A stretch of 64,000 bases of DNA from a virus. The position numbers were made by a program, and so were the translations under genes. Every line of letters starts with the position of its first letter. The first letter of the stretch is position 1. The DNA is taken from the IMG/VR virus record IMGVR_UViG_3300045988_119718, positions 1 through 64,000 of that record; one strand, 5' to 3'. The notes beneath the pieces are model-generated. The model did no database searches, was not told the origin of the DNA, and saw only the letters and a list, made by a program, of their open reading frames with translations. Positions 6,881 through 63,186 of the stretch are shown here, in pieces.

Positions 6881-6891
6881 ATTCTCATGTA

Positions 6892-8651: not shown

Positions 8652-8681
8652 AATTACTTCTCCTTTTACCAAAAATATACT

Positions 8682-9482: not shown

Positions 9483-9688
9483 ATCTCATACATCCCATAA
9501 ATTGAATTAAATCTCGCTATCATATTGTCGTCTTAAACTTAAATGCTTAGCACCAGAATTGTATCCTCCATTGGAATCATCCTCCTTCCCCAGTAATAAC
9601 TGTAATAGATTATTATTAATTAAGATTATACAAGTATAAATATATATTTATACTCATACTAATAATATACAACTATTATTTTAAATAA

Positions 9689-36953: not shown

Positions 36954-39221
36954 TTAGAAGTCTTTACCAAAGCATACCTTTTCAAGAGTCTTTACATATA
37001 CCTCAGTAAAAGTGCGTTTCATAACACTTGATGTACCAGTAGGTGCATAATCAGAATAGGGATCACCAAAATTTTCAAGATAATATTTAAGGTTAAGTAC
37101 GTATGGTACAGTATTGCTTGCAATAATGTATTTTGCTAAAAGCTTAGCTGCTTTTCTCTGTCTATTATAGTTGTAGTCATTAAGGGATCTATTAGACCCA
37201 TCTAAAACAAAATAGCAATGCTCGTTATTGGATTCGCTAATATTGCATTTACCAATAAGATTTCCACCCTTAACGATTTCTTTATAAATCTTATAAGAGC
37301 GTCTCTTATGCTGATGAGCAATTAATACATTATTGTATGCATGTTCCATAAACCAAAGGAAAGCAGGGATAAAGTCTCTTTGATAAATAAATTCCGTAAG
37401 AATATAATACATCTTATTGTATTTATTACTATTTGGTCTTTGTTTATTAATAGTTTCCTGTACCTTTTCTTCATTAGTATGTTTATGATCTTCTGCTTTA
37501 GTTTCTTTTGAAACTTCTTCTTCTTTTGGTGAAGATCCTTCAGTATTTTTACCTACAATCTCATCCAGTTTATTAGATAACTCTTTTACAGCTTTGTTGA
37601 AGTCATTCATTGCTTCTTTATTATCTTTTTCTTTTTCTCCATCAAATTCCTGTGTAGCTTTATCATACTTAGGTGCATCATTTTGCATAGATGATGGAAT
37701 ATAATTAATGCTAATTTTCTCCGTAGAAAAACCAGGTGCTCTATAAATATTGATAGGTGCATCAATACCATCAATCGGTTCAATGCCAGTAGTTTTAAAC
37801 ATAATATTTCTCCTTTTCAAAGAATCAGACTCATCATCTACTACGGTATACTGTGAAGAAGATAATCCGACCCAATGCTCATTAAAGCTAGTAGGCGGAT
37901 TTTTAATCTTAACATCCTTAAGTTTAGGACAATTCTTAAACATATCGGTACACCATTTGCAAGATTTCATATCAATGATACCTTTAATAGTAGTAAGATT
38001 GTAGCAGTTTTTAAACATATAAGACATATTTTTTACTTTAGAAGTATCAAAGTTAGATAAATCCAATGTAGTAAGACTAGTACAATCACCGAACATACAC
38101 TCCATATCATCTACATTAGACGTATTAAAACTAGATAAATCTAATGACGTAAGACCATGGCAATTAAAGAACATAAAGCTCATATTGGTTACTTTAGATG
38201 TATTAAAGCCAGATAAATCTAATGTAGTAAGACTACGGCAACTATTAAACATACTACTCATATTAGTTACTTTAGACGTATTAAAGTAAGTAAATAAATC
38301 TAATGAAGTAAGACCACTACAATGATGGAACATATACTCCATATTTGTTATTTTATCATCGATTATAACATTAGCTTGACCTGAAAATTCCAGTATATCA
38401 ATTACATGAGATTCATCAGCCCAAATCTTACTGTACCATGGAGCACTACCTGTAGATAAAAATGCCAATTTGTGATCATACTCATCATCTACTATGGTAT
38501 ACTGAGATTTAGAAAGCCTACTATACTTTTCAAATTTGTCAGGTGGATTCTTAATCTTAACACCTTTAAGCTTAGTACAATTCATAAACATATCACTATA
38601 CCGTTTACATGACTTCATATCGATTACACCTTTAATAGTAGTAAGGTTAGAGCAACCATCAAATATGCTAAGCATATTTTCTACATTAGAAGTATCAAAG
38701 TTAGTTACATCCAATGAAGTAAGACTAGTACACTTACTAAACATAAGACCCATATCTCTTACATTAGAAGTATTGAAGTTGGATAAATCTAATGAAGTAA
38801 GTTTAGAACAGCCACTGAGCATAAAGCTCATATCAGTTACATTAGAAGTATCAAAACTAGATAAATCTAATGAAGTAAGAGAAGAACACTGATGAAACAT
38901 ATTAAACATATCTTTTACTTTAGAAGTATCAAAGTTAGATAAGTCTAATGATGCAAGATTGTAGCAATAGGCAAACATATTCCTCATATTAGTTACTTCG
39001 GATGTATTAAAATTAGACAAATCCAATGAAGTAATACAATGGCATTCATTAAACATACTGCCCATATTAGTTACACCTTTGCATGTAACTGTAGCTTGAC
39101 CAGATATAGATTCATCCATGTTAATAAATTTATCCTCATCAACCCACGGCATCCAATAATAATTACTATCAGTAAACCATGGAGCATTACCTTTGGCTAT
39201 ATATACCTGCTCTTTAGACAT
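36954..39221 (-). CDS. BspA-type LRR protein with two complete family modules (N-module + LRRs + C-module, twice) fused to a ~290-aa non-LRR C-terminal domain
   Basis: MSKEQVYIAKGNAPWF..ESISGQATVT..LRRs..IKGVIDMKSC..VKIKNPP..SQYTIV, then again ..GSAPWY..FSGQANVI..LRRs..IKGIIDMKSC..VKIKNPP..SQYTVV; SD AAAGGAGAAGTATT-ATG. Confidence 0.8.
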   Translation of the reverse strand: MSKEQVYIAKGNAPWFTDSNYYWMPWVDEDKFINMDESISGQATVTCKGVTNMGSMFNECHCITSLDLSNFNTSEVTNMRNMFAYCYNLASLDLSNFDTSKVKDMFNMFHQCSSLTSLDLSSFDTSNVTDMSFMLSGCSKLTSLDLSNFNTSNVRDMGLMFSKCTSLTSLDVTNFDTSNVENMLSIFDGCSNLTTIKGVIDMKSCKRYSDMFMNCTKLKGVKIKNPPDKFEKYSRLSKSQYTIVDDEYDHKLAFLSTGSAPWYSKIWADESHVIDILEFSGQANVIIDDKITNMEYMFHHCSGLTSLDLFTYFNTSKVTNMSSMFNSCRSLTTLDLSGFNTSKVTNMSFMFFNCHGLTSLDLSSFNTSNVDDMECMFGDCTSLTTLDLSNFDTSKVKNMSYMFKNCYNLTTIKGIIDMKSCKWCTDMFKNCPKLKDVKIKNPPTSFNEHWVGLSSSQYTVVDDESDSLKRRNIMFKTTGIEPIDGIDAPINIYRAPGFSTEKISINYIPSSMQNDAPKYDKATQEFDGEKEKDNKEAMNDFNKAVKELSNKLDEIVGKNTEGSSPKEEEVSKETKAEDHKHTNEEKVQETINKQRPNSNKYNKMYYILTEFIYQRDFIPAFLWFMEHAYNNVLIAHQHKRRSYKIYKEIVKGGNLIGKCNISESNNEHCYFVLDGSNRSLNDYNYNRQRKAAKLLAKYIIASNTVPYVLNLKYYLENFGDPYSDYAPTGTSSVMKRTFTEVYVKTLEKVCFGKDF

Positions 39222-39537: not shown

Positions 39538-39783
39538 TTAAATACCAAGACTTCCTTTAGTAAATTTAATATTACGGACATCCCCTTCTATAAGAACTTT
39601 AGAATCAGGATATCTAATATTATCTCTACTTACTAAAATAGCAGTATATACTTTAGGAGATCCACGTACTATTACAGTACCGAATCTAGGTTCTACGGTT
39701 CCTCTTGATTTCTCAATCTCAATGATTTTATCATGTTGGGTTTGAGAGAAGATGAAAACTCTATAATATATATTATTCGTCAT
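39538..39783 (-). CDS. small hypothetical protein (81 aa) whose reading frame overlaps the 3' end of the RpoB N-terminal gene
   Basis: ORF track; 11-nt overlap with the upstream gene. Confidence 0.35.
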   Translation of the reverse strand: MTNNIYYRVFIFSQTQHDKIIEIEKSRGTVEPRFGTVIVRGSPKVYTAILVSRDNIRYPDSKVLIEGDVRNIKFTKGSLGI

Positions 39784-41563
39784 ATTTCAATATGTCACTT
39801 CCTTTCGCTATTGGTAAACCAGTTAATGAATCCAGATGTTTTTTAATAATCTGATCATTGGTTTCCATAATACCACCGAGTGCTTCTGTAACATGATTTG
39901 CTACCAATTCAGTTTGGTTAGCAATATCTACATCCTCCGTGGTTACATTATTGTCATCTAATACATTATGTTTAAACTCTATTACCTCTCTAAGTCCTTT
40001 GATTTTTTTATATTCATCACACAGTTCTTTTAGTTCTTGCTCATAAGTAATAGGTTCTTTATTATCAGATAAATAACCATTAGTGTTTAACTTAAGAAAT
40101 GGAATAATAGAACCATTTACACCTGGGTCAGATGGTGAAGATGCATCTGGGTCAAGAATACCCATATTGGAAATATCCAACAGTCTAAACTGGTTTGGAA
40201 TAGATCTAGAACCATTAGAACCATTAGTATCACCTACGCCAGAAATACCTTTATATGTAAATTTAGTTGCTAAAAATGCATCCATATCATTTACGATATT
40301 TCTAAATCCTACTAATTGTGATTTAGTAATTTCTACAATTAACCAATCTGGTTTGATATTGATAGTTCTTTCAATTTCTTTCAGATTAATTTTCTTGCCT
40401 TTATTACTAAGTCTATGAATATTAGTAGTAAGTTTCTTTGCATAAATAGCTGCAATATATTCAGCACATCTTACTTTCTTAGTAGTGATATTCATTGTAT
40501 CTTTCATTTTAAGATTATTGAATTCACATAATAACCATTGAAGTAGAACAAACATATCTTTCTTATATTTCCATGGAAGATAAATCTGTTCTTGGATATT
40601 AATATCCAAGGTAGATTCAAAAGATTTAAGAATAGTAAGACCTTTTTGCAGTTTATTTTGAGTTACAAATCCTCCACCTAATCTTTCAATCCAAATATCT
40701 GTATTATACAGATCATTGAAATTCATAGATGAAGTAATCATATTTAATAAAGTAACTACAGCATGCTGCATAATAGGATTATTCATAAAATATCTATCTA
40801 CATTAATAAAGATTTTATCATTCTTGCTACTGCAAAATGAACAAATATCTTCATTAGACTGATTGTCTGGAGATATAAATAGATAATTAGCCAATCCCAA
40901 GTTCTGTAATGCTTTAACTACACCATACTTAGCAAATAGATATACTATAGCTGGTACAGATTTATTAAATGCAAAACAAGAAAAACTAGTGAATGAATAC
41001 TTATTCCCATCAGTATCACCAACAGGAACTTCAAATCTAGTAATTCTAATTGGCTGGAAATTAGTTTTAAGAGTAATAGTAGCTTTCTTACTATTCTTTT
41101 TAGAAGAAGAATTATTATAAGTAGACGCATCCACAATCTGATACATTGGAGAATAATAATTTCCTTTTAAGAAGAAATAGAACTTATTTACTACTCTTGG
41201 TACTTCGATGATTACATCTAAGTTTTCTCTTTCATTCTTATATGAAGTTTCATAATGAACGATTAAAAGTTTAATCTTAGATTCTTGCAGATCAATATAA
41301 TTAAACCTGTTATCATCAGCAGCTTTCTTACTACCTTTAAGTACTCTTTCATAATGCTTTCTTAAGATAATCTGAATATCATCATAATTATCTGCTACAG
41401 TAAACCCTTTAACTCTTATCGTAAATAAACCATGAGTTTGAATAGAAATAATAATTTTTTCTAATTGATCAATAATTGCTTCATCGGATCTTAGAAATAA
41501 TTGGTCATTAAAATCATCTACATGATTTTGTACATAGTCATGTATAAATCTTTTAATACTCAT
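39773..41563 (-). CDS. multisubunit RNA polymerase beta-subunit-like protein, N-terminal and middle portion (highly diverged)
   Basis: ISGVGDTNGSNGSRSIPNQFRLLDISNMGILDPDASSPSDPGVNGSIIPFLKLNTNGYL aligns to E. coli RpoB [76 protein letters not shown]. Confidence 0.5.
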   Translation of the reverse strand: MSIKRFIHDYVQNHVDDFNDQLFLRSDEAIIDQLEKIIISIQTHGLFTIRVKGFTVADNYDDIQIILRKHYERVLKGSKKAADDNRFNYIDLQESKIKLLIVHYETSYKNERENLDVIIEVPRVVNKFYFFLKGNYYSPMYQIVDASTYNNSSSKKNSKKATITLKTNFQPIRITRFEVPVGDTDGNKYSFTSFSCFAFNKSVPAIVYLFAKYGVVKALQNLGLANYLFISPDNQSNEDICSFCSSKNDKIFINVDRYFMNNPIMQHAVVTLLNMITSSMNFNDLYNTDIWIERLGGGFVTQNKLQKGLTILKSFESTLDINIQEQIYLPWKYKKDMFVLLQWLLCEFNNLKMKDTMNITTKKVRCAEYIAAIYAKKLTTNIHRLSNKGKKINLKEIERTINIKPDWLIVEITKSQLVGFRNIVNDMDAFLATKFTYKGISGVGDTNGSNGSRSIPNQFRLLDISNMGILDPDASSPSDPGVNGSIIPFLKLNTNGYLSDNKEPITYEQELKELCDEYKKIKGLREVIEFKHNVLDDNNVTTEDVDIANQTELVANHVTEALGGIMETNDQIIKKHLDSLTGLPIAKGSDILKYDE

Positions 41564-45464: not shown

Positions 45465-47870
45465 TTACTTTTTCTCCGTTACACTTTTAATTACTTTTCT
45501 AAGTATTGGAATACGTCTCTTTTCAAACGTCTTTACTAACTTTACGTTTTCAATGAGTTGTTCATCTGTATTTGAAATCTTAAGAAGAGAATTAATAGCA
45601 TTATTAATTTTTTCTTCTTTGGATACTTCAGAATTTCCTAATACTTTAATATCAGTACTATTATCATACATATCCACCAGCATAGCTCTAGCTTTATTAT
45701 AGCCTTCACCAGTAACTTTAACAGGTAATTTAGTAATGACCTGTCTGTATGAATCTGGTTTAACTCTAGAGATAGCTCTTCTTAAAATTGGGACTCTAAG
45801 TTTCTTAGGAACTTTCTTGAATTCCAATTTAAGACCTAAGCACTTTAAATATGCATTAGCTATTTCTACATTTCTAGATTTAGCATTTTCATCCAATACA
45901 ATATTTCTATCGAATGGATCACCAATCAATAACTGCTTCATCATTCGTCTAGCTGTTGGAGCAGTAGACAACATCATGAGAGCTTCTACAGTGAACTGGC
46001 ATTCTGGTAACTGCATTAACTCAGATGCTTCCATACCACCAATTCTAACTGGAGTTTTAGCTATTGGAGAAATATGCATTTTATTAGCTTTAGTCTTAGT
46101 ATTCTCACCTCTAATATTGGTAGATGCCAATGATACAGCAGAGAACTTTTCTTCAGCTAATTGTTTTAGACGGTAGATATATTTCTTACCAACTACTAAT
46201 GGTCTATTAGTTCTAATCTTTCTAATATTACCGTTAGAATCTTTCTGATTGACGTACAGATACTCTTCTTTAATCCATGGGAATGTATTATAGATATTCT
46301 TAAGAATCTCTAATGTCATCTCATTTTTCATTGGAGTAATTACTACAGGAATATTTCCACTTTCTATGAGATAATCCATATCTTCAACTCTTACTTCAAT
46401 AGGAGTAGACATAATGATTCTATGAAAATCTGTAGCATAATCCATATTAATCAAAGAGAGATATTTAAGTACAGTTTGCTCAGCGACATCGACAACAGTC
46501 GATCTATTAAGATAAGACATGCCCTCCATCAAATCATCATGCTTAGCAGGATACCAATACGTACCAATAGCTTCAAGAAGTTTAGAGCCAATCCAAGTCA
46601 GTTCAGTTTCAAATGACTGACCTGGATTAAGTCTGTTGATAATGGTAGAAGAGTTATAAATTGCATCTACTGGATACCAATTACCATTTCTATAAAATAA
46701 TGGCATTTGATCATCTGGTAAGATAGCGGAAATAACACCTTTACCACCATATCTATCTGTAATCTTATCACCTTTACGCAGTACTTTATTCTCTCTAGTG
46801 ATAATTCTCAGAATGATATTATTGAATACTTTGTCTTTGATATATGGAATACCATTAGCTGTATCTCTGCACTTACGATATACAGATTGCATATCATAAG
46901 TCATTTTAACCCCAGGATGACTATCTAAGAATTTATCAACTGCTTTATAGAGCTTAATACAGAAATCAATATTCTTATCATAATACTCTTTAAGCTGCTG
47001 ATAATACATATCTTCTAGTTTATCTGGGTTATTGCAATATACATCAATATCAACAATTTCCCCATCGGAAATATATGTAGTATCAGAAATCATTAGCTGT
47101 TTAAGTCTTTCTTTAGACTGACTATAAAGAGCTTCATCATCTTTTCTTTCTCTTCTAATAGCACATACAATAGAATCTTTAATCTTCTCTCCGATATTTG
47201 GGAAAGCTTTGTAATAGGTATCATCTCCATACATATTCAATGGGATATCGTTTTCATTAATTACGATTTCAATCTCGTTAAACAATGGGGATTTAAACCT
47301 ATTAGCTGCACTCTGACTAATTACAATAGGGTCTTCTGTAGTCAACCCTAATGCCATATAAACAGTAGTAAGATTAATACCATCAGTCTTATTATCTTCT
47401 TCATCAAATGAATCAGATTTAACCAATGTAGTTCCTTTAGGAATTGTATCTCCTTTATTGAAACTATCTAATCCATCATTGTTTATATTAATACCATAAA
47501 TCTCTGTACGATATTCATAAGTAACTCTTTCTACACAATGAAGCATCTTATGTTCAATATCGTACAATAATGCATAATACTTATTCGCATACTTATAAAT
47601 CTTATCAATCAGTTTATACTGAGCATCTGTTTTAACGTAGTTAGAAGACAAATATGCAAATTTATTTTCATAACCAGTCATAATAATCGGTGTTTCAGCT
47701 TTACATAATTGAATGGATTGTTCTTTCTGAATTCCTTGCATAATCTTTCTGGAACCAGAATTAGTATCATTAAACGGTTGTAATAAGCCTTTACCTAGCG
47801 TATACTCACGCGATGGTAAATTCTTTTCAATTTCATTAGCAGTACTATTTAAATCCAAATTATTTGCCAT
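45465..47870 (-). CDS. multisubunit RNA polymerase beta-subunit-like protein, C-terminal catalytic portion
   Basis: GDKITDRYGGKGVISAILPDDQMPLFYRNGNWYPVDAIYNSSTIINRLNPGQSFETEL matches RpoB [55 protein letters not shown]; downstream GGMEASELMQL resembles FGEMEVWAL. Confidence 0.8.
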   Translation of the reverse strand: MANNLDLNSTANEIEKNLPSREYTLGKGLLQPFNDTNSGSRKIMQGIQKEQSIQLCKAETPIIMTGYENKFAYLSSNYVKTDAQYKLIDKIYKYANKYYALLYDIEHKMLHCVERVTYEYRTEIYGININNDGLDSFNKGDTIPKGTTLVKSDSFDEEDNKTDGINLTTVYMALGLTTEDPIVISQSAANRFKSPLFNEIEIVINENDIPLNMYGDDTYYKAFPNIGEKIKDSIVCAIRRERKDDEALYSQSKERLKQLMISDTTYISDGEIVDIDVYCNNPDKLEDMYYQQLKEYYDKNIDFCIKLYKAVDKFLDSHPGVKMTYDMQSVYRKCRDTANGIPYIKDKVFNNIILRIITRENKVLRKGDKITDRYGGKGVISAILPDDQMPLFYRNGNWYPVDAIYNSSTIINRLNPGQSFETELTWIGSKLLEAIGTYWYPAKHDDLMEGMSYLNRSTVVDVAEQTVLKYLSLINMDYATDFHRIIMSTPIEVRVEDMDYLIESGNIPVVITPMKNEMTLEILKNIYNTFPWIKEEYLYVNQKDSNGNIRKIRTNRPLVVGKKYIYRLKQLAEEKFSAVSLASTNIRGENTKTKANKMHISPIAKTPVRIGGMEASELMQLPECQFTVEALMMLSTAPTARRMMKQLLIGDPFDRNIVLDENAKSRNVEIANAYLKCLGLKLEFKKVPKKLRVPILRRAISRVKPDSYRQVITKLPVKVTGEGYNKARAMLVDMYDNSTDIKVLGNSEVSKEEKINNAINSLLKISNTDEQLIENVKLVKTFEKRRIPILRKVIKSVTEKK

Positions 47871-47934: not shown

Positions 47935-49167
47935 TTATACGTTTAAGAGATTCATTACTTTTTCATTGATTTTATTATTAGCGATTGTAGTTGGATTTAC
48001 ATTTGCTTCTGGAATCTTTTTAAGCTCTTCAATATATGCTGCGGTAAAAGTATTAAAGAACTCTTCATTATTCTGCATTTTTTCTTTAAAGTTACCCATA
48101 GAGAATTTCATATCTTTATGGTCATCTAAGTACAAACCAATACCTGCACCATGGATTCTATCAGTATTCTGCATAAAGATAAGAGATGACAGGATAGGGT
48201 CAAACCCAGTATCATGGTTGAAAAGTAATGTAGTTTTCTGATTGGATCTAGCAGATCTACTCTTTACCAAAGTAGCTTCTACTAATGAACCCCATACCTT
48301 ATACTTCTCATCACCTTTAAGTTTAGTTACATCATCAAGTCTAATAATAGTATTAGCAAGATAGATAATAGTTTTACCCTTAGGTAAAGTTTCACCTACT
48401 TTAAGATATGCAAGAGATGGTTTCTTTGGTCTGCCAGTAATAGATACATCATCCAAAATATGATTAACTGCAATAAGAATAATATTAGCAGCTTTAAGCA
48501 TCTGGATAATACCTCTAAATACCTGAGTGACTACTTTAGCTCCTGCTGTAGTAGACATTGTACCACCAAGTTCATCCTGCTCTAATACATTCTTAGGCAT
48601 AAGAAGTGCAACGGAGTCAAGAATATATACGGTAGGTTCAAACATCATAATCGGATTGCCAAAGCTATCCAGCTTTCCAGTATCATAGATAAAATCATCT
48701 CTATTAGCAAGCTTCATATCATGAATCATTTTAATACGTTCATAGAAGTTTTCAGCTGTAATGCCTTTATCTCTAATGATGTATCTCTGCTTAAGTTCAT
48801 CACCATAATAGCCAGTAAGCATTTCTCTTCTTTGCCATGTAGCAGATAATGATTCGGTAGAATCTTCAAAGATACAAGATGATTTAAATGGTCTAATAAT
48901 ATTAGCAGCAATCTGTTCACAGAAAGTAGATTTACCACAACCAGATCTACCAATCACCATTACAAATGAACCGTTAGCAATACCAAGAGAATAGTATTCT
49001 TCATGAAGATTTTTAGCTTCATTATTGACAGTTTGAATATATCCATTCATAAAGTCAAAATTAGCAAACCCTGTAGGATAACCTACATCGGTAGTAGCTT
49101 CTACACTCATAGACATATCTTTACTTTTGGATACTTCCTGTCTAAACATATCGGACAATAAAGTCAT
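47935..49167 (-). CDS. RecA/UvsX/RadA-family recombinase
   Basis: Walker A GRSGCGKST; Walker B VYILDSVALLMPK (compare RecA VIVVDSVAALTPK); ..TQVFRGIIQMLKAANIILIAVNHI.. resembles RecA ..LIFINQIR. Confidence 0.75.
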   Translation of the reverse strand: MTLLSDMFRQEVSKSKDMSMSVEATTDVGYPTGFANFDFMNGYIQTVNNEAKNLHEEYYSLGIANGSFVMVIGRSGCGKSTFCEQIAANIIRPFKSSCIFEDSTESLSATWQRREMLTGYYGDELKQRYIIRDKGITAENFYERIKMIHDMKLANRDDFIYDTGKLDSFGNPIMMFEPTVYILDSVALLMPKNVLEQDELGGTMSTTAGAKVVTQVFRGIIQMLKAANIILIAVNHILDDVSITGRPKKPSLAYLKVGETLPKGKTIIYLANTIIRLDDVTKLKGDEKYKVWGSLVEATLVKSRSARSNQKTTLLFNHDTGFDPILSSLIFMQNTDRIHGAGIGLYLDDHKDMKFSMGNFKEKMQNNEEFFNTFTAAYIEELKKIPEANVNPTTIANNKINEKVMNLLNV

Positions 49168-49247
49168 TTTATTTACCCCCTGTAAAAAATAAAAATGTAT
49201 TCCCATTACTATTAAAGTTAATGCGTATATCTAAATTAAAAAAAAAT

Positions 49248-49275
49248 AAACTGAGTGTGCTACCACACTCAGTTT
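49248..49275 (-). terminator. terminator hairpin, a variant of the GTGTGGTA..TACCACAC family
   Basis: AAACTGAGTGTG-CTAC-CACACTCAGTTT preceded on plus by A9. Confidence 0.6.
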
Positions 49276-49287
49276 AAATTAAATCCA

Positions 49288-50112
49288 TTAAGGAATCATT
49301 GTACCTTCTGAAGCGAATGCATTTAATACATTATGGATATTCTGATACTTTGCATCACAATTTGTAAATCCAAATCTAATAAGATCTGAGTTATAAGACC
49401 GATTTACATATTCATTATAGAATGATTGTAAGCAAGATTTAGCAGACGCAAACTCTAATGAATTTAGAATAATCATTAAAGCGGTATCCATATTCTTATC
49501 ATTTTCTTTAAGTGTATCCGTAACCCATTTTTCTTCTTTTTCAATAGCATCTTTAATTGTAGTATCAAACATACTGTTTACAAACAATACAGAGAAGTTT
49601 TTACTAAAGAAGATAGCATAGATTCTAATAATATTCTCTACAGATACAGTTTTAGTATAAGTAGCAATAGTGAAATTAAACTTTCTAATTCTATCTTTAT
49701 CGTTTAAAGATGAATATAAAGTAATAGCTAAGAAGATACACATTTCACTATCAAATGCTTCTAAAGATTCTAATTGTTTTACCACTTGTTTGTTAGCAGA
49801 TTCCCCTAACATGAAGGCAAGCTTTCTAACATAATCAGTGGTTTTAGTATTTACAATGATATAGTACAAAATAGAATCCAAATAAGTTTTATAAACTGGA
49901 TCAATAGAAATAGTACCATTAAATACTTGATTCAAAATACTTAAAAGATAACTATTTGTAATTAGATTATGGTATTTAGATTTCTTACTATAAAGAGCAT
50001 AAAGAATGGCTTTGTAGTTAGTATTCACATAATCATACATTTCATAATCATCATGAGTAGCAATTTTAGCATATAAAGCACTCATAATAGATTCTTCAGA
50101 ATTCATTTCCAT
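49288..50112 (-). CDS. hypothetical protein (274 aa) immediately downstream of the tubulin-like gene
   Basis: ORF track. Confidence 0.45.
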   Translation of the reverse strand: MEMNSEESIMSALYAKIATHDDYEMYDYVNTNYKAILYALYSKKSKYHNLITNSYLLSILNQVFNGTISIDPVYKTYLDSILYYIIVNTKTTDYVRKLAFMLGESANKQVVKQLESLEAFDSEMCIFLAITLYSSLNDKDRIRKFNFTIATYTKTVSVENIIRIYAIFFSKNFSVLFVNSMFDTTIKDAIEKEEKWVTDTLKENDKNMDTALMIILNSLEFASAKSCLQSFYNEYVNRSYNSDLIRFGFTNCDAKYQNIHNVLNAFASEGTMIP

Positions 50113-50123
50113 TGTATCACTCC

Positions 50124-51305
50124 TTAAAACTCTGAGCTAGGAACTACAATCTTTTTTACTTTCTTAAATGTACCATTTTCAGATTCTACTACAGTAGGAT
50201 TAGCACCAAGAGAATTAAAGAAATCTTCTTTAGCAGAATTAATATTCTTTTCTTTTTCTGATTTAGTAAGAGTATCAAATTCATTAGCTTCAGTAGAGAA
50301 GTTCTTACTAAAGAATTCATCCTTAGATACATCTACAGATGCTCTAGTATTAATGAAATCATTATAAACTTCTTCAATATCTTCTACCGGCATCTTAAGC
50401 CCAGAGATAATAAACTGAATGGTATTATCTTCATGAACATTCTGGATGTGAGAGAAGCTTTCATACGGCACACCATATCTATCTTTCAGTACTTTATTAG
50501 AATAATCTACAAAGTAGGATTCTTTATCACTGATATCCAAGATAGTACCAAAGCGTTTGCATGTAGGTTCGGTGGTAAGAGACTTAGAATCATCTGTAGC
50601 AGAAATAAGTCTCTTATTATAGTCATCTACATTTTTAATCTTATTCAGATTAGCAGATTCAATGACCATAAACCCTGGGGTATTAACAAGTTTAAGCAAG
50701 TCAGATTCATCAATATTCTGCTTAGACTCAGTAATAGTACCGCCTAAAAGAATTTTAATATTTTCACAGAATTTCTTATTTGCTAATTCTTCTGCTTTAA
50801 GTCTATTACCATAAGCTTCATCCAAGAATTTCTTATTAGAAATAGCTTCTACAGTATAAGACGGATCAAGTTCTTTAAACAGGTCTACTGTATTCTTCAA
50901 TCCTCTTACATCATCTTCAAATCCTGTAAAGATACAGAAATGAATATGAGTTTTATACACAGAAGAAATATATTTAGCAAGCATAATGCATGCACCAGAG
51001 CCAGTACCGCCTTCAGCACTGGTAACAATAATAGTCATAGCATCTTTATCATCGTATGGATAATCAAATTTATTTGTTTTAAGATTTTCCATCATGATAT
51101 TATTAGCTACAGAACGTTCTTTGGCACAGCCTTTATAAAGACCTTCCAGTTCTACTGCATGTTCACGATATTCCATAGGGATATCTTTCAATGTAGTATT
51201 TACAAGCATAATACTATTCTGCAATTCAGGGATTTCGTTCATAAGTTCAATAGCTGCCTTGTTACCAGCAGCACCAATTCCGATAATTTTTGCATTGAGC
51301 ATCAT
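50124..51305 (-). CDS. tubulin/FtsZ-family GTPase (PhuZ/TubZ-like phage tubulin)
   Basis: T1 loop KIIGIGAAGNKAA; tubulin signature SAEGGTGSGA (GGGTGSG-like); 393 aa; SD AAAGGAGAAAATTATT-ATG. Confidence 0.7.
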   Translation of the reverse strand: MMLNAKIIGIGAAGNKAAIELMNEIPELQNSIMLVNTTLKDIPMEYREHAVELEGLYKGCAKERSVANNIMMENLKTNKFDYPYDDKDAMTIIVTSAEGGTGSGACIMLAKYISSVYKTHIHFCIFTGFEDDVRGLKNTVDLFKELDPSYTVEAISNKKFLDEAYGNRLKAEELANKKFCENIKILLGGTITESKQNIDESDLLKLVNTPGFMVIESANLNKIKNVDDYNKRLISATDDSKSLTTEPTCKRFGTILDISDKESYFVDYSNKVLKDRYGVPYESFSHIQNVHEDNTIQFIISGLKMPVEDIEEVYNDFINTRASVDVSKDEFFSKNFSTEANEFDTLTKSEKEKNINSAKEDFFNSLGANPTVVESENGTFKKVKKIVVPSSEF

Positions 51306-51355
51306 AATAATTTTCTCCTTTACTAATAAAATTTTATAATTACATTAAGGTTATA

Positions 51356-51937
51356 TTAGTCTTTAACTTTAATCCTAATAGTGTATTTATTGATAAATTC
51401 AATGAATGCGTTTCTCACAAAATCATCTTCATAAACTCCATTAGGATCTTTAAGCTTGTATAATTCAATAAATGCTCTACTATATACAGGTCCTCTATCA
51501 TTAAAAATTTCTACTATTTTATGAATAAATTTCTTATCACACTTACTAATAGCATATTTATCATAATAGTGATCTTTTTCATAAAACTTTCGTACATCAT
51601 AATTTGTCTCATAATAATCTAATACATCGTATGAAGAAATATAAAGCGAATCATCATTTTCACTACGTTTACAGAAATCGCAAACAAATAATGAACGGTC
51701 AAATTCTGCTAAATAACAACCATAAACTATATACATGATTATGAATAGCTTCTCGGTACACAAATAATATGAGTTATTATATTTATTACCAAAACGCTTG
51801 TACTTTTTATAGTTATAATGGCAAATTTCTTTAGCTATACTAATAGCATCATAATATTTCCATGCCATAGTTATTGGTACTCCGTCTACTTTATACCTCA
51901 AGTACCAATCTAAAGTTACTACTTTAGTCTTTCCCAT
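51356..51937 (-). CDS. hypothetical Cys/Tyr-rich protein (193 aa)
   Basis: ORF track. Confidence 0.45.
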   Translation of the reverse strand: MGKTKVVTLDWYLRYKVDGVPITMAWKYYDAISIAKEICHYNYKKYKRFGNKYNNSYYLCTEKLFIIMYIVYGCYLAEFDRSLFVCDFCKRSENDDSLYISSYDVLDYYETNYDVRKFYEKDHYYDKYAISKCDKKFIHKIVEIFNDRGPVYSRAFIELYKLKDPNGVYEDDFVRNAFIEFINKYTIRIKVKD

Positions 51938-51953
51938 AATAATGCTCCTTTGT

Positions 51954-52919
51954 TTACAATGCTTGAATAGATTTATTCATAACACTAGAGATCTTGTATG
52001 CCCAATTAGGATCTGTAGCGTAATTACCATTCTTCATAGATTGCAATGTAGTATAACCATTCTTGTAGAAGTTATTACTAATCCATACGGCTCCGTTAAT
52101 AATACCCGCATCAATATCATTGCCCATTACATAACCAGCATTGGGGTTAGCATCAACACAATTAATACCAAAATAATTATGTCGGTTTCTTGCCATATAG
52201 CTTGTTCCCCAGCCAGATTCAATAGCTGCATGTGCTAAAATATAAATAGGATTTAGCCCAGATGCTTTAGATGCTTTGATAAACGCATCTCCTTTATTCT
52301 TAAACTGAGATTGAATACCCATATGCATAATCCAATAATCAATAATCTTATTCATATCTTTAGATGTGATTTTCATATTGCTATTTGATAAATCAGAGTT
52401 TACGTCATATCCAGTACTCTTAATATATGAAATATTGGTAGCATGCTCCTCCAATGTCTTTTTCATAGTTTCATCTTGTTGTTTTTGTCTTTCTTCAATA
52501 CGCTGCTGTTGCTTTTGAATTTCTACTAAAATATTATATACTTTTTGATTAGCAGTATTATCTTCAGACAACTGATCTTCAATATTAGTTACTCTAGTAT
52601 CAATAATAGATACTTTACCCCAAAGTAAAAAGTTAATGATAATAAAAGCTACAACTAAAAATACTGTAATTAACCGTTCCAGAATAAGTTTCTTCTTGGA
52701 TACATTTGTTAAGTTTTGCATAACTATTCTCTCCTTAAAGATAATAAATATTAAAGTAAATAAACTATATACGATAAAAAGAACTAGAGAGCAATCTCTA
52801 GTTCTTGTAAATAGGGAATTATAAATCTCTTGTTGGAGATTATTTGTTATCGTTCTTTTCTTCTTTTTTAGATTTACGATAAGCTTCCTGATCTTTCTCA
52901 TTAAGCTCATCCACACCAA
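51954..52919 (-). CDS. membrane-anchored peptidoglycan hydrolase (glucosaminidase/FlgJ-LytD-type domain) with an N-terminal TM helix and a coiled-coil linker
   Basis: N-terminal LVLFIVYSLFTLIFIIF and ITVFLVVAFIIINFLLW; C-terminal NPIYILAHAAIESGWGTS..NYFGI.. glucosaminidase signature. Confidence 0.65.
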   Translation of the reverse strand: MVWMSLMRKIRKLIVNLKKKKRTITNNLQQEIYNSLFTRTRDCSLVLFIVYSLFTLIFIIFKERIVMQNLTNVSKKKLILERLITVFLVVAFIIINFLLWGKVSIIDTRVTNIEDQLSEDNTANQKVYNILVEIQKQQQRIEERQKQQDETMKKTLEEHATNISYIKSTGYDVNSDLSNSNMKITSKDMNKIIDYWIMHMGIQSQFKNKGDAFIKASKASGLNPIYILAHAAIESGWGTSYMARNRHNYFGINCVDANPNAGYVMGNDIDAGIINGAVWISNNFYKNGYTTLQSMKNGNYATDPNWAYKISSVMNKSIQAL

Positions 52920-53065
52920 TACCTAAATCACCAACTTCAGTGATTACGGAAATCTTTTCATCATTTTCATTCATGATATTTCACTTCCTTTCTAAAATTA
53001 ATAACTTGTTAAACTAAATTTCTAATTTAAAACTTCATAATTATAATATATAACTTAAGCTAGTA

Positions 53066-53833
53066 TTAACTTTCTCTTCTAACTTTATTATTATTTCTAA
53101 TATCAGAAGTATAAGGTAGCATATAACTATCCTTAATAGTAATAAGATTGCTCATAACACCTGCACCTAACAGATATACATTCAATGTATTTCTAGCAGT
53201 AGAGTCTGTTTTAGAAACTTCTACATCATTTAACGAAACCATATTCTTTTCAGCAATCGTAGAATAGAACTCATCCTTAGCTTTTACTGTATCTGCTCTA
53301 TAAGTAGCTAATTCTCTCATGGTATTAGATAAACCCATTACAGCAAGACATTCCATTTCTCTATCAGATGTATTACCATTCTTATCTTTATTGATTAATC
53401 TACCACTCTTCATATTTCTTTCATCAGTATTAATAGACATAGAGTTCTTTTTAGCTAAGAACTGCTTCATCTTCTTCAATGGAGCATAGACAACTAATGC
53501 TTCATAATTAGTCTTTACTGGCTTACCATCATTACTGGTATATATAAATGGTAAATATACTTTTTCCATCAAAGGTACATTTAAAGTTTTAGCCGCTTTT
53601 TCTATTTGATACATCTTTGGTTCAATATCAAACAATTTCATTTGAAACTTCAGTGGAAATTCTTGTTTAAAATATTCATAGAACTGTTTATCAGACATAG
53701 AAGCAAACTTCTTTTTATACCAAGAACTATTTGCATTGGATGGGTCTAATATATCCATAATCTTATAAATAAGATTCTCTACTTCTTTTCTAGCTTTTTT
53801 TATATTCTGTTGTGATTCTAATACAGCTTCCAT
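53066..53833 (-). CDS. hypothetical protein (255 aa)
   Basis: ORF track. Confidence 0.45.
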   Translation of the reverse strand: MEAVLESQQNIKKARKEVENLIYKIMDILDPSNANSSWYKKKFASMSDKQFYEYFKQEFPLKFQMKLFDIEPKMYQIEKAAKTLNVPLMEKVYLPFIYTSNDGKPVKTNYEALVVYAPLKKMKQFLAKKNSMSINTDERNMKSGRLINKDKNGNTSDREMECLAVMGLSNTMRELATYRADTVKAKDEFYSTIAEKNMVSLNDVEVSKTDSTARNTLNVYLLGAGVMSNLITIKDSYMLPYTSDIRNNNKVRRES

Positions 53834-54000
53834 ATTATCACCTCATAAAACGAATACCAATTATTTTTATGTTTTTAGAATTAAGATGCTCACTATTTTT
53901 AAAAAAATAATTACGATATAACAATATAGTGAAGACAAAAATATATTTACCCCAATCTCATTCTATGTCTTCACTTTCTTACAACTTCCCATAATAATAA

Positions 54001-54040
54001 GTATATAACATCTAGCTTATATAAGCTAGATGTTATATAC
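54001..54040. promoter_or_regulatory. perfect 40-bp palindrome in a divergent promoter region; candidate operator
   Basis: GTATATAACATCTAGCTTATATAAGCTAGATGTTATATAC, ~30 bp upstream of the start at 54072; an additional inverted repeat AGTGAAGACA(28 nt)TGTCTTCACT lies at 53928-53975. Confidence 0.5.
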
Positions 54041-54071
54041 CGTTGATAACTTTTATGTAAGAGGTGATAAA

Positions 54072-55166
54072 ATGAAAACTTATAATGAAGCATATGTATT
54101 TAAAAAACCTAGAACGTTATTAACCATTGAAAATGAAATAAGAAAAATAAAAATTAAATGGGAAGATAAAATAGATCCAAAAACTGGATCTACTATAAAT
54201 AAAGAAGATAAACCAAAACTTATAAAAGATTTAAGATCATTATGTAAAATTACATATAGAGAATTAGTTAAAGAATTTAACTTTGGTAAAAAGTTTGATT
54301 TTCTTGTAGAAATAGATGATATTGTAAATGCTTGGTCTAGTGATTTTACTTATAAAAACATAGAGTTATCTAACTATAAAAATATTATAGAAATATCTCC
54401 TGATAAGAGAATGAGATTTAAAAATAGAGATATTTGTAATGCTACAGTAACTTTTACTACAGATATTATATTCAATAAAGAAATGAAAGCTGATTACTTA
54501 GTAGCTATTATGCTGCATGAAATAGGTCATATATTTAGTTTCTTATTCTTCAAATTAAATGCTGAATTAAATCTTTTGCAAAATATTTTATTTAATAAAT
54601 TGACTGATAAAGAACTTGTAGAGAAATATAATAATCTTAATAAAAAAGAACAAAGAAAAACTGATAACAAAGCAAATGCTTTAGGTGTATATTTTTTCGA
54701 TAATATGGATTCTCAAGAAGGTGAAAAGTTTGCAGATCACTTTGCGGCATATTATGGATATGGATATGAACTAGCTCAAGGCTTAGCTTTATTCTTTAAA
54801 ATTAATGGGTATATGAAACCAGAAGGGGTATTAAACACATTAACTTTCGATTTAAATTTAGTTTTAACTGATTTATTGGTAAACAACTATCCTAATACTT
54901 TTAATAGATTAAACTATATTCTTAACGCTATGAAGAGAGAATTAAAATACAACAAATCTCTTACCAAAAAACAAAAACAAGAATTATTAGAAAAAATAAA
55001 TAATATCAATAAGCTTAATGCTGAGTTGTATAATACTAAACATTCTAGAACTCCATATGGATTATTACGCAATGTAATATATTCAAATAAAGTAGGTCAA
55101 ACTAAAGACTTAGATAATAGATACAATCAGTTATTAGATGATTATGTAGATAAGAAATTGTTTTAA
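54072..55166 (+). CDS. HExxH-motif protein, a putative zinc metallopeptidase-like protein
   Basis: AIMLHEIGHIFSF; SD AGAGGTGATAAA-ATG. Confidence 0.45.
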   Translation: MKTYNEAYVFKKPRTLLTIENEIRKIKIKWEDKIDPKTGSTINKEDKPKLIKDLRSLCKITYRELVKEFNFGKKFDFLVEIDDIVNAWSSDFTYKNIELSNYKNIIEISPDKRMRFKNRDICNATVTFTTDIIFNKEMKADYLVAIMLHEIGHIFSFLFFKLNAELNLLQNILFNKLTDKELVEKYNNLNKKEQRKTDNKANALGVYFFDNMDSQEGEKFADHFAAYYGYGYELAQGLALFFKINGYMKPEGVLNTLTFDLNLVLTDLLVNNYPNTFNRLNYILNAMKRELKYNKSLTKKQKQELLEKINNINKLNAELYNTKHSRTPYGLLRNVIYSNKVGQTKDLDNRYNQLLDDYVDKKLF

Positions 55167-55200
55167 ATAAAAAAAAGAAAGGTTAGCAAATGAGACTAAC

Positions 55201-55232
55201 CGTAACTAGCTAATGAGACTAGTTTACTTTTT
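55201..55232 (+). terminator. intrinsic terminator for the plus-strand gene
   Basis: CTAGCTAATGAGACTAG hairpin followed by TTTACTTTTT; preceded by a second hairpin GGTTAGCAAATGAGACTAACC. Confidence 0.5.
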
Positions 55233-55323
55233 CTTCGGAATTTTGTGCTTACTATGTCCTTATGCATTCAGACAAAAGAATGCATTTGACTCTTCGGCAC
55301 CCGTAGTAGCTCACCATGAGTGA

Positions 55324-55539
55324 TCATACATCATGATCGTTCATGGTGTTCAGTGCAGCCACATACATGACTACATTAGCCATGTAGTCATGTGCATGTT
55401 CGAGGTCGATGAAGGAACCATCGTTAGCCTCGAGCTGAGCCAAAATGCTATTAAGGCTACTAATAGCACATTTGGTTTCGCACTTAGCTATCTTGAGATT
55501 TTTGAGTTTCAGCTTCTCAAGATCTACGGAGTTTGCCAT
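55324..55539 (-). CDS. small GC-rich (~50% GC) helical protein (71 aa from the Met with an SD)
   Basis: AAGGAGGTGACTATAAT-ATG; GC content about double the genome background. Confidence 0.5.
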   Translation of the reverse strand: MANSVDLEKLKLKNLKIAKCETKCAISSLNSILAQLEANDGSFIDLEHAHDYMANVVMYVAALNTMNDHDV

Positions 55540-55628
55540 ATTATAGTCACCTCCTTTTCTAATAAAATACAACTATGAATATGGATTCACTATAATATTA
55601 TATAAGTATAGAAATATAATATTACAAA

Positions 55629-55660
55629 ATTTAGAGACTGGTATATACCAGTCTCTAAAT
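55629..55660. terminator. terminator hairpin with a GGTATATACC core
   Basis: perfect 32-bp palindrome ATTTAGAGACTGGTATATACCAGTCTCTAAAT followed by CATTTTTATTTATT. Confidence 0.6.
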
Positions 55661-55665
55661 CATTT

Positions 55666-56844
55666 TTATTTATTAGCCTGATAGATTGACATTGCTAAGT
55701 ACATTAATAATGCTTTATTATAATTATTTCTAGTTGCTAATCTGTGTTTTCTCTTTCTGTATAATACAGAACCAGTATTAAGCCAATTATCTATGATACT
55801 CTTTAATTCTAACACATGCTCATCTTTAGTATTAGGTTTAGGTGTAATACTATAGGTAATAAAATTCATAGTAAGTATATTTTTATCTTTAGACTGTTCA
55901 AAGTATGTATATACTAAAATACTTATAGCTTTACGAACTAATATCATATTATTCTTATCATTCAGTATAGATTCTATAATAGACTTTAGTTCCTCAGTCT
56001 TTACTGTAGTATTAGATGATAATTTACATAGCTTATAATCAGCACCACTAGCTACTATGAAAGACATAGTTCTTTGTATTACTTTCTCTGCTTTAAATGA
56101 ATCTGAAGATGCTAAATGATAATCGCCACCATTATTCTTAGGATCTTCATTATCAGAGTTATAGACAATGTAGTCTTTATTCTCATATGCTTTATAATAT
56201 GCTTTAGCTATATTAATCATAAAGCTTCTAATTCTAGAGTGTAATTGCCCTATAAGATATACTACATCTTCATCTGAATAACTAATAAATCTTTTCTCAT
56301 AAGTTTTAACCCAAGTTTGGCAAATACTCATTATAGCTGCAAATAGATTACCTTTAGATTTTAATACGAATTTATTATTCAGCATATTATTGATTACATA
56401 TTCCATTACGAAGTCTTGTGGTACTACTTTAGGGAAAGACATATAATGGATACTAGGATAGAATTTACCTGAGAATGCTAAATAGATCATAGATATATCT
56501 AATGATTTATTATCTTTCTTTAATAAGAAATATCTAATTATAGTCAGCATTAATACAGTTAATTCATCTTTAGCTGCTCTAGGGTTAAAGTTAGCTTGAG
56601 GCCCATAATAGGTATTAGATATAGCATCTTTAACTACTTTCTTTTCTATATTCACAGCTTCAAACATTTTAGTTATATCTGATTCTCTATAATATAATCT
56701 GTCTAATGGAGCAGTTTTAAATAATTCTTCATGCCTATCTGTAATAAAAGTTGATAAACAGGTTTTATATTGTGATAATCGTTTAGGCAATATGCTCTCT
56801 ATTTTAGTATAAACATTATCTTTTATAGATGATTTGTTAGCCAT
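55666..56844 (-). CDS. hypothetical protein (392 aa)
   Basis: ORF track. Confidence 0.45.
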   Translation of the reverse strand: MANKSSIKDNVYTKIESILPKRLSQYKTCLSTFITDRHEELFKTAPLDRLYYRESDITKMFEAVNIEKKVVKDAISNTYYGPQANFNPRAAKDELTVLMLTIIRYFLLKKDNKSLDISMIYLAFSGKFYPSIHYMSFPKVVPQDFVMEYVINNMLNNKFVLKSKGNLFAAIMSICQTWVKTYEKRFISYSDEDVVYLIGQLHSRIRSFMINIAKAYYKAYENKDYIVYNSDNEDPKNNGGDYHLASSDSFKAEKVIQRTMSFIVASGADYKLCKLSSNTTVKTEELKSIIESILNDKNNMILVRKAISILVYTYFEQSKDKNILTMNFITYSITPKPNTKDEHVLELKSIIDNWLNTGSVLYRKRKHRLATRNNYNKALLMYLAMSIYQANK

Positions 56845-60985: not shown

Positions 60986-61132
60986 TTTATAACCTCCCTT
61001 AATAATTAATGAGATGTCGTCATATATATAATATCTAACTTATTTAATATTTATTGAAGAACTATATAGTATGGAGGTAAAAAAGAAAAGTGGTAGTTCA
61101 CCTTTCTTTATAATATAATTTATGAAATAAAC

Positions 61133-61393
61133 TTATTGTTTATAGTCACAAATTCTACATGGCATAGATATAATATCTGCTGGGGTAGCATTGACATCTA
61201 ATACCATGAATGCATAATCATTATTAGAATTTTTATTTTTATCAATAAAAATTTTTCTAATTTGATCCATACTAAGTAACTTGCTATTAATTTTAAAACT
61301 TTTAACAAGTTTATAGTATTTCTCTTTAGCATTATATTTAAATTCGGCAAGACGCTTATCGCAATCCTGCTCAAAAATAATATTATTAAGCAT
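61133..61393 (-). CDS. small Cys-containing protein, paralog 3 of a tandem family (..DYAFMVLDV..CRICDYKQ)
   Basis: shared motifs with 61733..62008 and 62190..62465. Confidence 0.5.
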   Translation of the reverse strand: MLNNIIFEQDCDKRLAEFKYNAKEKYYKLVKSFKINSKLLSMDQIRKIFIDKNKNSNNDYAFMVLDVNATPADIISMPCRICDYKQ

Positions 61394-61545
61394 GCATATT
61401 CACCTCCATTATGATAGTCTTATCTAAATCTACTAGATAGGGCTAGATTAAATATAAACCTAAAGATTCATATTCATAGGTATAATATACAATTTAAAAA
61501 ATACTCCATACCAATATTGGTATGGAGTATAATAAAAAAAAATAA

Positions 61546-61699
61546 AAGCTTAAGAAGCAAAAGACTAAACTCGACTTGTTTAATCTATACTTCTTAAGCA
61601 ATAGCAAATGAATAGGTATTAATGTTTAGCAATTAAAGTAGCACAAAAATATTTTGATTGATTAAGAAAATAACTGTAAAGCTAAACTACCTATTCATA
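61546..61699. ncRNA. candidate structured RNA or regulatory element in a 340-bp intergenic region
   Basis: 10-bp perfect inverted repeat GCTTAAGAAG..CTTCTTAAGC (61546-61600); nested stems ATGAATAGGTA..TACCTATTCAT (11 bp) and GTTTAGC..GCTAAAC (61601-61699); terminator hairpin TACTCCATACCAATATTGGTATGGAGTA at 61501-61528. Confidence 0.3.
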
Positions 61700-61732
61700 T
61701 AAATAATATATAATTATTAATTTTATTATCCA

Positions 61733-62008
61733 TCAACACAATAGTGAGGGATTTAGATTATACTGCTTTCGTTTTGCACGATCACATATTCGCATGCCTG
61801 TATAAATTTCTTGGCATGGCTTATCCGTCACATTGAGTATAGAATATGCAAAGTCATTATTAAATGATTTATTCATTCTAATAAAGCTGTCTTTTATGGA
61901 TTTCATATTCTCTTTTGACGGATTAATGATATACTCGTCAATAAAATGATAGCACTCGTCTTTATCATTGTAAACAAATCTAACGAGTTTTTTAAGATGA
62001 TTATTCAT
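61733..62008 (-). CDS. small Cys-containing protein, paralog 2 (..NDFAYSILNV..RICDRAK)
   Basis: paralog family; conserved upstream palindrome. Confidence 0.5.
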   Translation of the reverse strand: MNNHLKKLVRFVYNDKDECYHFIDEYIINPSKENMKSIKDSFIRMNKSFNNDFAYSILNVTDKPCQEIYTGMRICDRAKRKQYNLNPSLLC

Positions 62009-62122
62009 AATTGAATTCCTCCTATCATCCTTCCAATAGTTGCCTCTATTGGAAGGATAAATAAAAATATTTTAATGGATTAATTATCCATAGTTATAAT
62101 ATATAATTTAAACAATATTTAT

Positions 62123-62146
62123 CTAGTACCTCATATAAGGTACTAG
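62123..62146. promoter_or_regulatory. 24-bp palindrome (1 mismatch) upstream of paralog 2; candidate operator or terminator
   Basis: CTAGTACCTCATATAAGGTACTAG followed by the conserved ATAAACTTTTGATTTA(A/G)G(T/G)AGGTGTATGAA(T/C)AACTAA. Confidence 0.45.
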
Positions 62147-62189
62147 ATAAACTTTTGATTTAAGTAGGTGTATGAATAACTAATATTAT

Positions 62190-62465
62190 TTATTTCTTTG
62201 ATATAAAATGTTTATCTTTACGATCACAAATTCTAGTTTTAGTATAGATTCTATTCTTAGGAATATCATGTATACCTATTAAACTAAATGCAAAATCATT
62301 ATTATTTTTATTTAATCTAATGAATTCATCACGTATCGATTGTATTGGAGTTAGATTTAAATCAACTATAAAGTTTTCTACTAAATGATAGCACTTATTG
62401 TCATCATCATAATGATATTTTGCTAACCGTTTTAAATTAGAAAAATTTGTTAAATTATTTGTCAT
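62190..62465 (-). CDS. small Cys-containing protein, paralog 1 (..NDFAFSLIGI..RICDRKD)
   Basis: paralog family; SD AAAGGAGGAATTTATT-ATG. Confidence 0.5.
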   Translation of the reverse strand: MTNNLTNFSNLKRLAKYHYDDDNKCYHLVENFIVDLNLTPIQSIRDEFIRLNKNNNDFAFSLIGIHDIPKNRIYTKTRICDRKDKHFISKK

Positions 62466-62557
62466 AATAAATTCCTCCTTTTATCTTTTCAAATATAGAG
62501 ATAATAAAATATTTGATTTACTCATAAATATATTATATAACTGAAAAAGTGTATTAT

Positions 62558-62581
62558 CCAGTACCTCATATGAGGTACTGG
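62558..62581. promoter_or_regulatory. perfect 24-bp palindrome CCAGTACCTCATATGAGGTACTGG upstream of paralog 1 and just downstream of the dUTPase gene
   Basis: second copy of the ~60-bp conserved element. Confidence 0.5.
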
Positions 62582-62623
62582 ATAAACTTTTGATTTAGGA
62601 GGTGTATGAACAACTAAATATAT

Positions 62624-63175: not shown

Positions 63176-63186
63176 AACGGTGTCTC

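Follow-up and report, generated by a model that had tools for sequence, protein, structure and literature searches.

The stretch of DNA examined here comprises positions 1 to 64,000 of the IMG/VR virus record IMGVR_UViG_3300045988_119718 and is referred to in full as the window. At 50124-51305 its minus strand carries an ATG-to-stop open reading frame (ORF) of 393 residues with a strong ribosome-binding site at its start, and the product is a tubulin/FtsZ-superfamily GTPase that is assigned below to the TubZ type. A preliminary description, made from the letters of the sequence, had proposed a phage-encoded GTPase of this family, and the ORF, its T1 and T4 motifs, more than 800 homologs and a match of the family profile to the PDB all uphold that proposal. 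The T1 nucleotide-binding loop GIGAAGNKA occupies residues 9-17 (51255-51281, minus strand) and the T4 tubulin signature EGGTGSG residues 98-104 (50994-51014, minus strand). In an alignment of 24 sequences G11, N15 and K16 of the first and G99, G100, T101, G102 and G104 of the second are invariant. A T7-type synergy loop that the first reading had missed, NIDESD, lies at residues 197-202 (50700-50717, minus strand) with N197, D199 and D202 invariant in the same alignment. The T7 loop is the catalytic loop of these proteins and inserts into the neighbouring subunit within filaments. Both superfamily loops, T1 (GxxGxGN) and T4 (GGTGS/TG), are present in the family alignment, and the predicted structure of the protein shows the two-domain superfamily fold (a Rossmann-like GTPase domain, H7 and a C-terminal activation domain) together with the acidic T7 catalytic loop. 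The globular core spans residues 1-335 and a disordered tail residues 336-393.

Profile support for the tubulin assignment from the single sequence is weak. Pfam Tubulin (PF00091) gave E=5.6e-5 and 23.9 bits, which is under the gathering score of 33, and the best PHROG label was PHROG 4733, 'tubulin PhuZ', at E=7e-6. An NCBIfam scan of the tubulin, both of its neighbours and four large uncharacterised ORFs returned nothing relevant. The assignment is nevertheless not a product of chance because the homologs, which lie on contigs of 130-340 kb, keep the invariant motif residues and because the family profile matches FtsZ in the PDB at E=2.8e-12.

The gene directly downstream (49288-50112, minus strand) starts 11 nt past the tubulin stop codon and encodes a conserved partner, a 274-residue acidic all-alpha protein of the HEAT/ARM-like helical-repeat kind. 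In 70 of 88 loci a member of its family directly follows the tubulin, and a hidden Markov model (HMM) detects the family in 79 of 90. A PDB sequence-profile search with the partner gave marginal matches to PP2A-B56 HEAT repeats only (E>0.1), and c-st TubY, compared with the partner family by hhalign, gave a probability of 0.7%. Its acidic character makes it unlikely to be a DNA binder. The AR9 proteins gp079 and gp080 were considered as partner homologs and rejected by HMM. Three genes had been put forward earlier as possible partners of the tubulin; the conserved gene at 49288-50112 stands, whereas the gene at 51356-51937 is a singleton and the GC-rich gene at 30903-32954 encodes the major capsid protein.

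The tubulin and its partner are, as read from the sequence, co-transcribed in a unit bounded by terminators. On the minus strand the order is a promoter-like motif, a 44-residue ORF (52840-52974), a hairpin, a glucosaminidase gene, a 193-residue gene, the tubulin, the partner and a terminator. The hairpin at 52779-52806 (minus strand), read from the sequence, is terminator-like and lies after the 44-residue ORF and upstream of the lysin gene. The latter (51954-52721, minus strand) opens the unit and encodes a membrane-anchored glucosaminidase of 255 residues from the ATG at 52721, which is served by a ribosome-binding site (Pfam Glucosaminidase, E=1.3e-19; PHROG endolysin); it is found at the -1 position of the tubulin in 56 of 90 loci. 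When the genes of 90 loci were clustered, the 193-residue gene between lysin and tubulin (51356-51937, minus strand) remained a singleton, and Pfam, PHROG and NCBIfam gave no match to it; it is lineage-specific and probably lies outside the conserved module. The end of the unit is marked by a strong intrinsic-terminator-like hairpin at 49247-49276 (minus strand) that has a T-run; its 13-bp stem is followed by TTTTTTTTTA.

The motif ahead of the unit, ATATATTAT at 53043-53051 (minus strand; extended context ATATATTATaattATGa), resembles early promoters of the AR9 type and is shared with the annotated AR9 early promoters. With a common extended context, ATATATTATaatNATGa, it recurs 50-130 nt ahead of several genes on the minus strand, that for RNA polymerase (RNAP) beta among them, and the minus-strand sites with this context have their 5' ends at 62104, 58334, 53051, 47929, 43048, 25095, 17683 and 9393. 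The bare 9-mer is not enriched in the window (16 found, 13.7 expected), and it is the extended context and the placement of the motif that suggest a virion-RNAP promoter type conserved with AR9. A scan for sigma-70 promoters fell below shuffle expectation and was uninformative.

The disordered tail of the tubulin (50127-50300, minus strand) has predicted local distance difference test (pLDDT) values below 50 at residues 338-353 and 362-393. Just upstream of this span is a first motif, KDEFF (residues 328-332), which is followed by a second, EDFF (residues ~360-363), and by an acidic-aromatic C-terminus, SSEF. This arrangement is kept by 74 unique family members, which have K-D-x-F-F after the core, x-x-F-F about 30 residues further on and an acidic-aromatic end. 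The DxFF motifs resemble the tip of the c-st TubZ tail, which ends in NDFFSKYM; this tip is reported to bind TubR/tubC and TubY and to adjust the dynamics of the filament (PMC5322520). A divergent sub-lineage, L015-L018, from metagenome-assembled genomes (MAGs) binned as Acidaminococcales or Phascolarctobacterium, is 36-44% identical and lacks the partner gene; the tubulin tail of its members is shorter and has a single FF-type motif at the extreme C-terminus, as in c-st TubZ.

By sequence profile and predicted structure the family belongs to the TubZ branch, which is known from phages and plasmids with Gram-positive hosts, and resembles TubZ rather than PhuZ. Among annotated records the closest profile match by hhalign is the TubZ-like protein of the Bacillus velezensis plasmid plaBV1 (98.9%, E=3.5e-17, 292 columns, 27% identity), and c-st TubZ reaches 96.3%. 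Bacillus phage G gp138 scores 94.8% over 292 columns that extend into the region of the first tail motif. With E. coli FtsZ the score is 79% and covers just the 104 N-terminal columns, and among the tubulin classes compared PhuZ is the most remote, with phiKZ PhuZ at 0.8%. The T3-region motif G-x-G/A-K-E-R is common to the family, c-st TubZ and the plaBV1 protein, and the form G-C-(A/G)-K-E-R is shared with c-st TubZ. T101 and D202 of the family align with T100 and E200 of c-st TubZ, for which T100A and E200A are described variants (PMC5322520). The predicted model places a helix at residues 307-323, after S10, where helix H11 of TubZ is expected, and the disordered tail follows. A plain hmmsearch of the PDB at E<=1 returned only FtsZ and CetZ, so the placement with TubZ rests on hhalign and structure. 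In 50,697 phage records tblastn with the tubulin found nothing at E<=1e-5, and at E<=10 phage G gp138 was the sole match (23% identity, E=3e-4).

These comparisons bear on whether the protein acts on host division, that is, whether an FtsZ-like protein co-polymerises or competes with host FtsZ and blocks or redirects septation, possibly with the adjacent membrane-anchored hydrolase. FtsZ is indeed what the plain PDB profile search returns first (E=2.8e-12), source annotations read 'cell division GTPase FtsZ', and the transmembrane-anchored glucosaminidase is the usual upstream neighbour. The similarity to FtsZ is, however, confined to the N-terminal GTPase half (104 hhalign columns), and the full-length fold with its H11-bearing C-terminal domain matches TubZ better. 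Neither full-length similarity to cellular FtsZ nor a chromosomal division cluster was found, and phage genes flank the gene in all 90 loci. The family is clearly not a host FtsZ, and the result that the preliminary description had named as refuting it, a placement with host FtsZ and no affinity to phage tubulins, did not come about. The tail motifs are also unlike the FtsZ C-terminal peptide. Moreover, a holin occupies the syntenic slot in AR9, which makes the glucosaminidase more simply a lysis gene. A takeover of host division is regarded as very improbable.

Within a large clade of uncultured jumbo phages (~230-340 kb), the tubulin gene belongs to the syntenic core; the clade is distantly related to the group of AR9, PBS1, PALS_2 and phiR1-37. 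The left end of the window is 99.99% identical to a metagenomic contig of 252,690 bp, and a tubulin 98% identical to this one is encoded on an IMG/VR contig of 231 kb. In public metagenomes the family forms hundreds of clusters, some of them on more than 100 contigs. Isolate genomes and MAGs yielded family members on seven MAG contigs only, and their bins (Tenericutes, Bacilli, Spirochaetaceae, Acidaminococcales and Phascolarctobacterium) are weak evidence for the host. No member was found on PLSDB plasmids. The expectation of an AT-rich phage with a probably anaerobic host held up: the GC content of the window is ~0.29, and the region 62624-63705 encodes a dUTPase and the anaerobic ribonucleotide reductase activase NrdG (63187-63705). 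Relatives encode NrdD just outside the window; an HNH gene interrupts it in L102, and in L103 it is intact. NrdG and NrdD together fit an anaerobic host.

The neighbourhood of replication and transcription genes was also described correctly at the outset, as a RecA-like recombinase beside the tubulin and a split RNAP beta in the window. A UvsX/RecA-like gene lies at 47935-49206, and three pieces of multisubunit RNAP (msRNAP) are present, a non-virion RNAP (nvRNAP) beta N-terminal-like piece at 39773-41563, an RNAP beta C-terminal piece at 45465-47870 and an RNAP fragment at 53066-53833. PHROG scans of the window further identified a tail sheath, virion proteins, a DNA polymerase, a primase, an SbcC-like protein, an NAD-ligase, a topoisomerase II and a GroEL-like chaperonin (26012-27790; PHROG 5725, E=1e-56). 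The GC-rich gene of 683 codons at 30903-32954, once suggested as a shell or spindle component, turned out to encode the major capsid protein (PHROG 20655, E=4e-20). Its sole match is the phiR1-37 major capsid protein, at 27% identity, and it holds the same relative position as AR9 gp116. The RNAP beta is 34% identical to that of AR9/PBS1/Goe21, 32% to that of Staphylococcus S6/PALS_2, 28% to that of phiR1-37 and ~21% to that of Chimalliviridae; identities to AR9/PBS1 and the Staphylococcus jumbo phages span 31-34%, and Listeria LPJP1 is also among the nearest cultured phages by this protein. The gene order follows that of AR9: virion RNAP (vRNAP) piece, lysis gene, UvsX, nvRNAP beta, ligase, nvRNAP beta N-terminal piece and major capsid protein. 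The tubulin and its partner are both absent from the syntenic AR9 region.

The preliminary description had taken this combination of genes to indicate a PhuZ-like tubulin in a nucleus-forming phage, that is, a spindle that centres a proteinaceous phage nucleus. For such a spindle to operate here, the shell protein would have to be encoded beyond the examined sequence or have diverged too far for detection. The tubulin does co-occur with msRNAP genes and a GroEL-like chaperonin, and Iyer et al. 2021 noted a co-occurrence of HSP60, tubulin and msRNAP among jumbo phages. The best PHROG label names PhuZ. The dUTPase argues against uracil DNA of the AR9 style, and thymine-DNA phages with msRNAPs mostly form a pseudo-nucleus (Sokolova et al. 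2020, PMC7598289). The examined sequence, ~84 kb made up of the window and ~20 kb flanking it in relatives, is about one third of the genome. On the other side, PhuZ is the tubulin class farthest from the family (0.8%, against 96.3% for c-st TubZ and 98.9% for the plaBV1 protein), and the protein falls outside the PhuZ clade. RNAP beta, the major capsid protein and the synteny with AR9 likewise place the phage backbone outside the chimallin clade. The nearest cultured phages by RNAP beta (28-34% identity, against 21% for Chimalliviridae) and by capsid protein lack chimallin; PBS1, PALS_2 and phiR1-37 serve in the literature as representatives of phages with msRNAP but no chimallin (PMC10299810), and a 2026 review places AR9 outside Chimalliviridae (PMC13282480). 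A chimallin HMM built from five sequences, which gave 888 bits with its positive control, found no match either in the window and the ~20 kb that adjoin it in relatives or within 10 kb on either side of the tubulin in 90 relatives. With phiKZ chimallin as the query, tblastn matched 102 phage records, all of phages with Gram-negative hosts and none of them AR9-like. In five Chimalliviridae chimallin is directly upstream of the nvRNAP beta gene, a position held here by UvsX. Overall, the nucleus reading is unsupported, and we give a PhuZ-like spindle little chance.

Another possible role is type III (TubZRC-like) partition, in which the phage genome would be segregated as an episome in a pseudolysogenic or carrier state, as in Clostridium phage c-st, with a DNA-binding adaptor located elsewhere or its place taken by a protein not recognised as such. 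The contents of the locus speak against this. Searches by phmmer with c-st TubR and with a 94-residue protein of plaBV1 found no TubR, and a search for TubY, a protein with a MerR-like helix-turn-helix (HTH) and a coiled coil, found none, in each case in the window and in the loci of relatives. No HTH was found in the genes neighbouring the tubulin. A direct-repeat search detected no iteron or tubC array within 49100-56000, and with the phmmer results this confirms the earlier remark that no TubR-like HTH gene or iteron array adjoins the gene. Genes for TubR, TubY or a winged HTH protein were not found in the relatives' 20-kb neighbourhoods either, and an acidic HEAT-like protein such as the conserved partner is unlikely to bind DNA. 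The gene sits within a cluster for lytic replication, transcription and lysis that is syntenic with the virulent phage AR9, and the family was not found on PLSDB plasmids and, among isolate genomes and MAGs, is carried by the seven MAG contigs only. Partition is considered unlikely on these grounds, less so than a nuclear spindle or a takeover of division.

Two observations on relatives concern the same search. The relative L005, which is 47% identical and without the 274-residue partner, has a non-coding region of 488 bp upstream of its tubulin, and at 9620-9760 this locus contains at least three copies of AAATCTATT-N10-(A/C)TGTG. The motif was found in that one distant relative only, and its copies may represent promoters or an array resembling a centromere. 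An HTH_17 gene ~5 kb from the tubulin in relatives was examined as a TubR candidate and set aside, as it is absent from the window, not adjacent and not conserved. This variable accessory gene of 122-145 residues is located at 5368-5742 in L001 and at 18181-18549 in L103, both close relatives; the corresponding stretch of the window, 55166-55666, lacks it.

The reading that we prefer, with a probability of roughly 0.5, is a phage filament of the TubZ type that lacks TubR, uses a new adaptor or regulator and polymerises in a GTP-dependent manner. The tubulin would polymerise head-to-tail with GTP into dynamic filaments, treadmilling or unstable, inside the infected cell. Its tail motifs would modulate filament dynamics and recruit the helical-repeat partner, much as the tip of c-st TubZ recruits TubR and TubY. 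In place of these two proteins the partner may serve as an adaptor or regulator that links the filaments to cargo. Instead of a centromere coated by TubR, this cargo could be phage DNA under replication, capsids or a site on the membrane. The filament, tail and partner steps are inferred by analogy with TubZ of c-st and of Bacillus. Early or middle expression in lytic growth is suggested by the promoter motif and by the genes for replication and transcription nearby.

Several points weigh against a filament of this kind. Polymerisation, binding of the tail to the partner and the cargo are all inferred. Across relatives, loss of the partner and loss of the tail motifs show no clean correlation. 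The genome sequence on which the absences rest amounts to ~84 of ~253 kb. A more far-reaching version, which we regard as possible and put forward tentatively, would make the TubZ-derived cytomotive filament a third kind of phage tubulin system. The TubR/centromere adaptor would have been lost, and a dedicated helical-repeat protein of the HEAT/TOG-like kind would read the DxFF motifs of the tail. The task of the system, in lytic infection of anaerobic low-GC gut bacteria by jumbo phages related to AR9, would be to organise replication or the assembly of virions, possibly around a compartment not made of chimallin.

Other features were observed in the window and in one relative. Four paralogs at 6892-7398, 7566-8672, 8682-9257 and 36954-39221 share one domain that matches a common set of uncharacterised PHROGs (17273, 22899, 9915 and 3649); three of them are clustered beside the tail sheath region. 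A perfect palindrome of 20+20 bp at 54001-54040, GTATATAACATCTAGCTTAT / ATAAGCTAGATGTTATATAC, lies between the divergent RNAP fragment gene (minus strand) and a gene for 378 residues (plus strand). It overlaps the start of the ORF at 54030 and was also flagged as terminator-like. The region 61000-62600 is 1.6 kb with only three ORFs of ~90 residues and two promoter-like motifs, and has no ORF of 120 residues or more. In the relative L006, which is 46% identical, a reverse transcriptase gene (RVT_1; 3686-5038) is located ~5 kb upstream of the tubulin.

Earlier work has pointed out tubulin homologs of huge phages (PMC7162821, PMC7824862), and one member of the present family is public as 'Cell division protein [Myoviridae sp. 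ctcyQ27]'. The literature searched contained no description of the family's affinity to TubZ, of the uncultured clade related to AR9, or of the HEAT-like partner and the duplicated tail motif. Two phage tubulin systems appear in the literature consulted: PhuZ, which positions the chimallin nucleus, mostly in Gram-negative hosts, and c-st TubZ, which partitions a plasmid-prophage via TubR/tubC. The family fits neither of them, and no protein comparable to its conserved partner is known from the tubulin systems of bacteria. Work on the family might reveal how a jumbo phage without a chimallin shell brings order to the infected cell, and how adaptors are recruited by tubulin tails in organisms other than eukaryotes. 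The case further cautions against the use of a tubulin together with a split RNAP as a marker of a nucleus-forming lifestyle.

Of the known systems close to the family, type III partition of c-st (TubZ-TubR-TubY) has a TubZ whose identity to the family is only ~18-22%. The c-st system has tubR, tubY and tubC, none of which was detected here; its TubZ works with TubR and TubY where the present locus has an acidic HEAT-like protein. The tail of the family carries two DxFF motifs and a separate acidic-aromatic tip, unlike that of c-st TubZ, and the setting is a lytic-type jumbo-phage replication cluster rather than the maintenance region of a plasmid-prophage. The TubZ-like 'FtsZ' of plaBV1 (NZ_CP097468) is encoded on a 122-kb plasmid with a classical small TubR-like gene directly upstream and no HEAT-like partner. 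The two genes at 5567-6963 of that plasmid, one for a 94-residue winged-helix TubR-like protein and then one for the 370-residue 'FtsZ', look like an undescribed type III partition pair. Phage G gp138, annotated as 'putative FtsZ-like', is uncharacterised, belongs to a different phage backbone and has no adjacent homolog of the 274-residue partner. Cellular FtsZ and archaeal CetZ are similar to the family in the N-terminal domain only, and the family differs from both in its TubZ-type T3 region (GxxKER), its H11 helix, its tail and its status as a phage core gene rather than a host gene. PhuZ of Chimalliviridae (phiKZ gp039, 201phi2-1, Goslar) is, like the family, a tubulin of jumbo phages that have msRNAPs as well, and both proteins have a C-terminal tail that is likely important for assembly.
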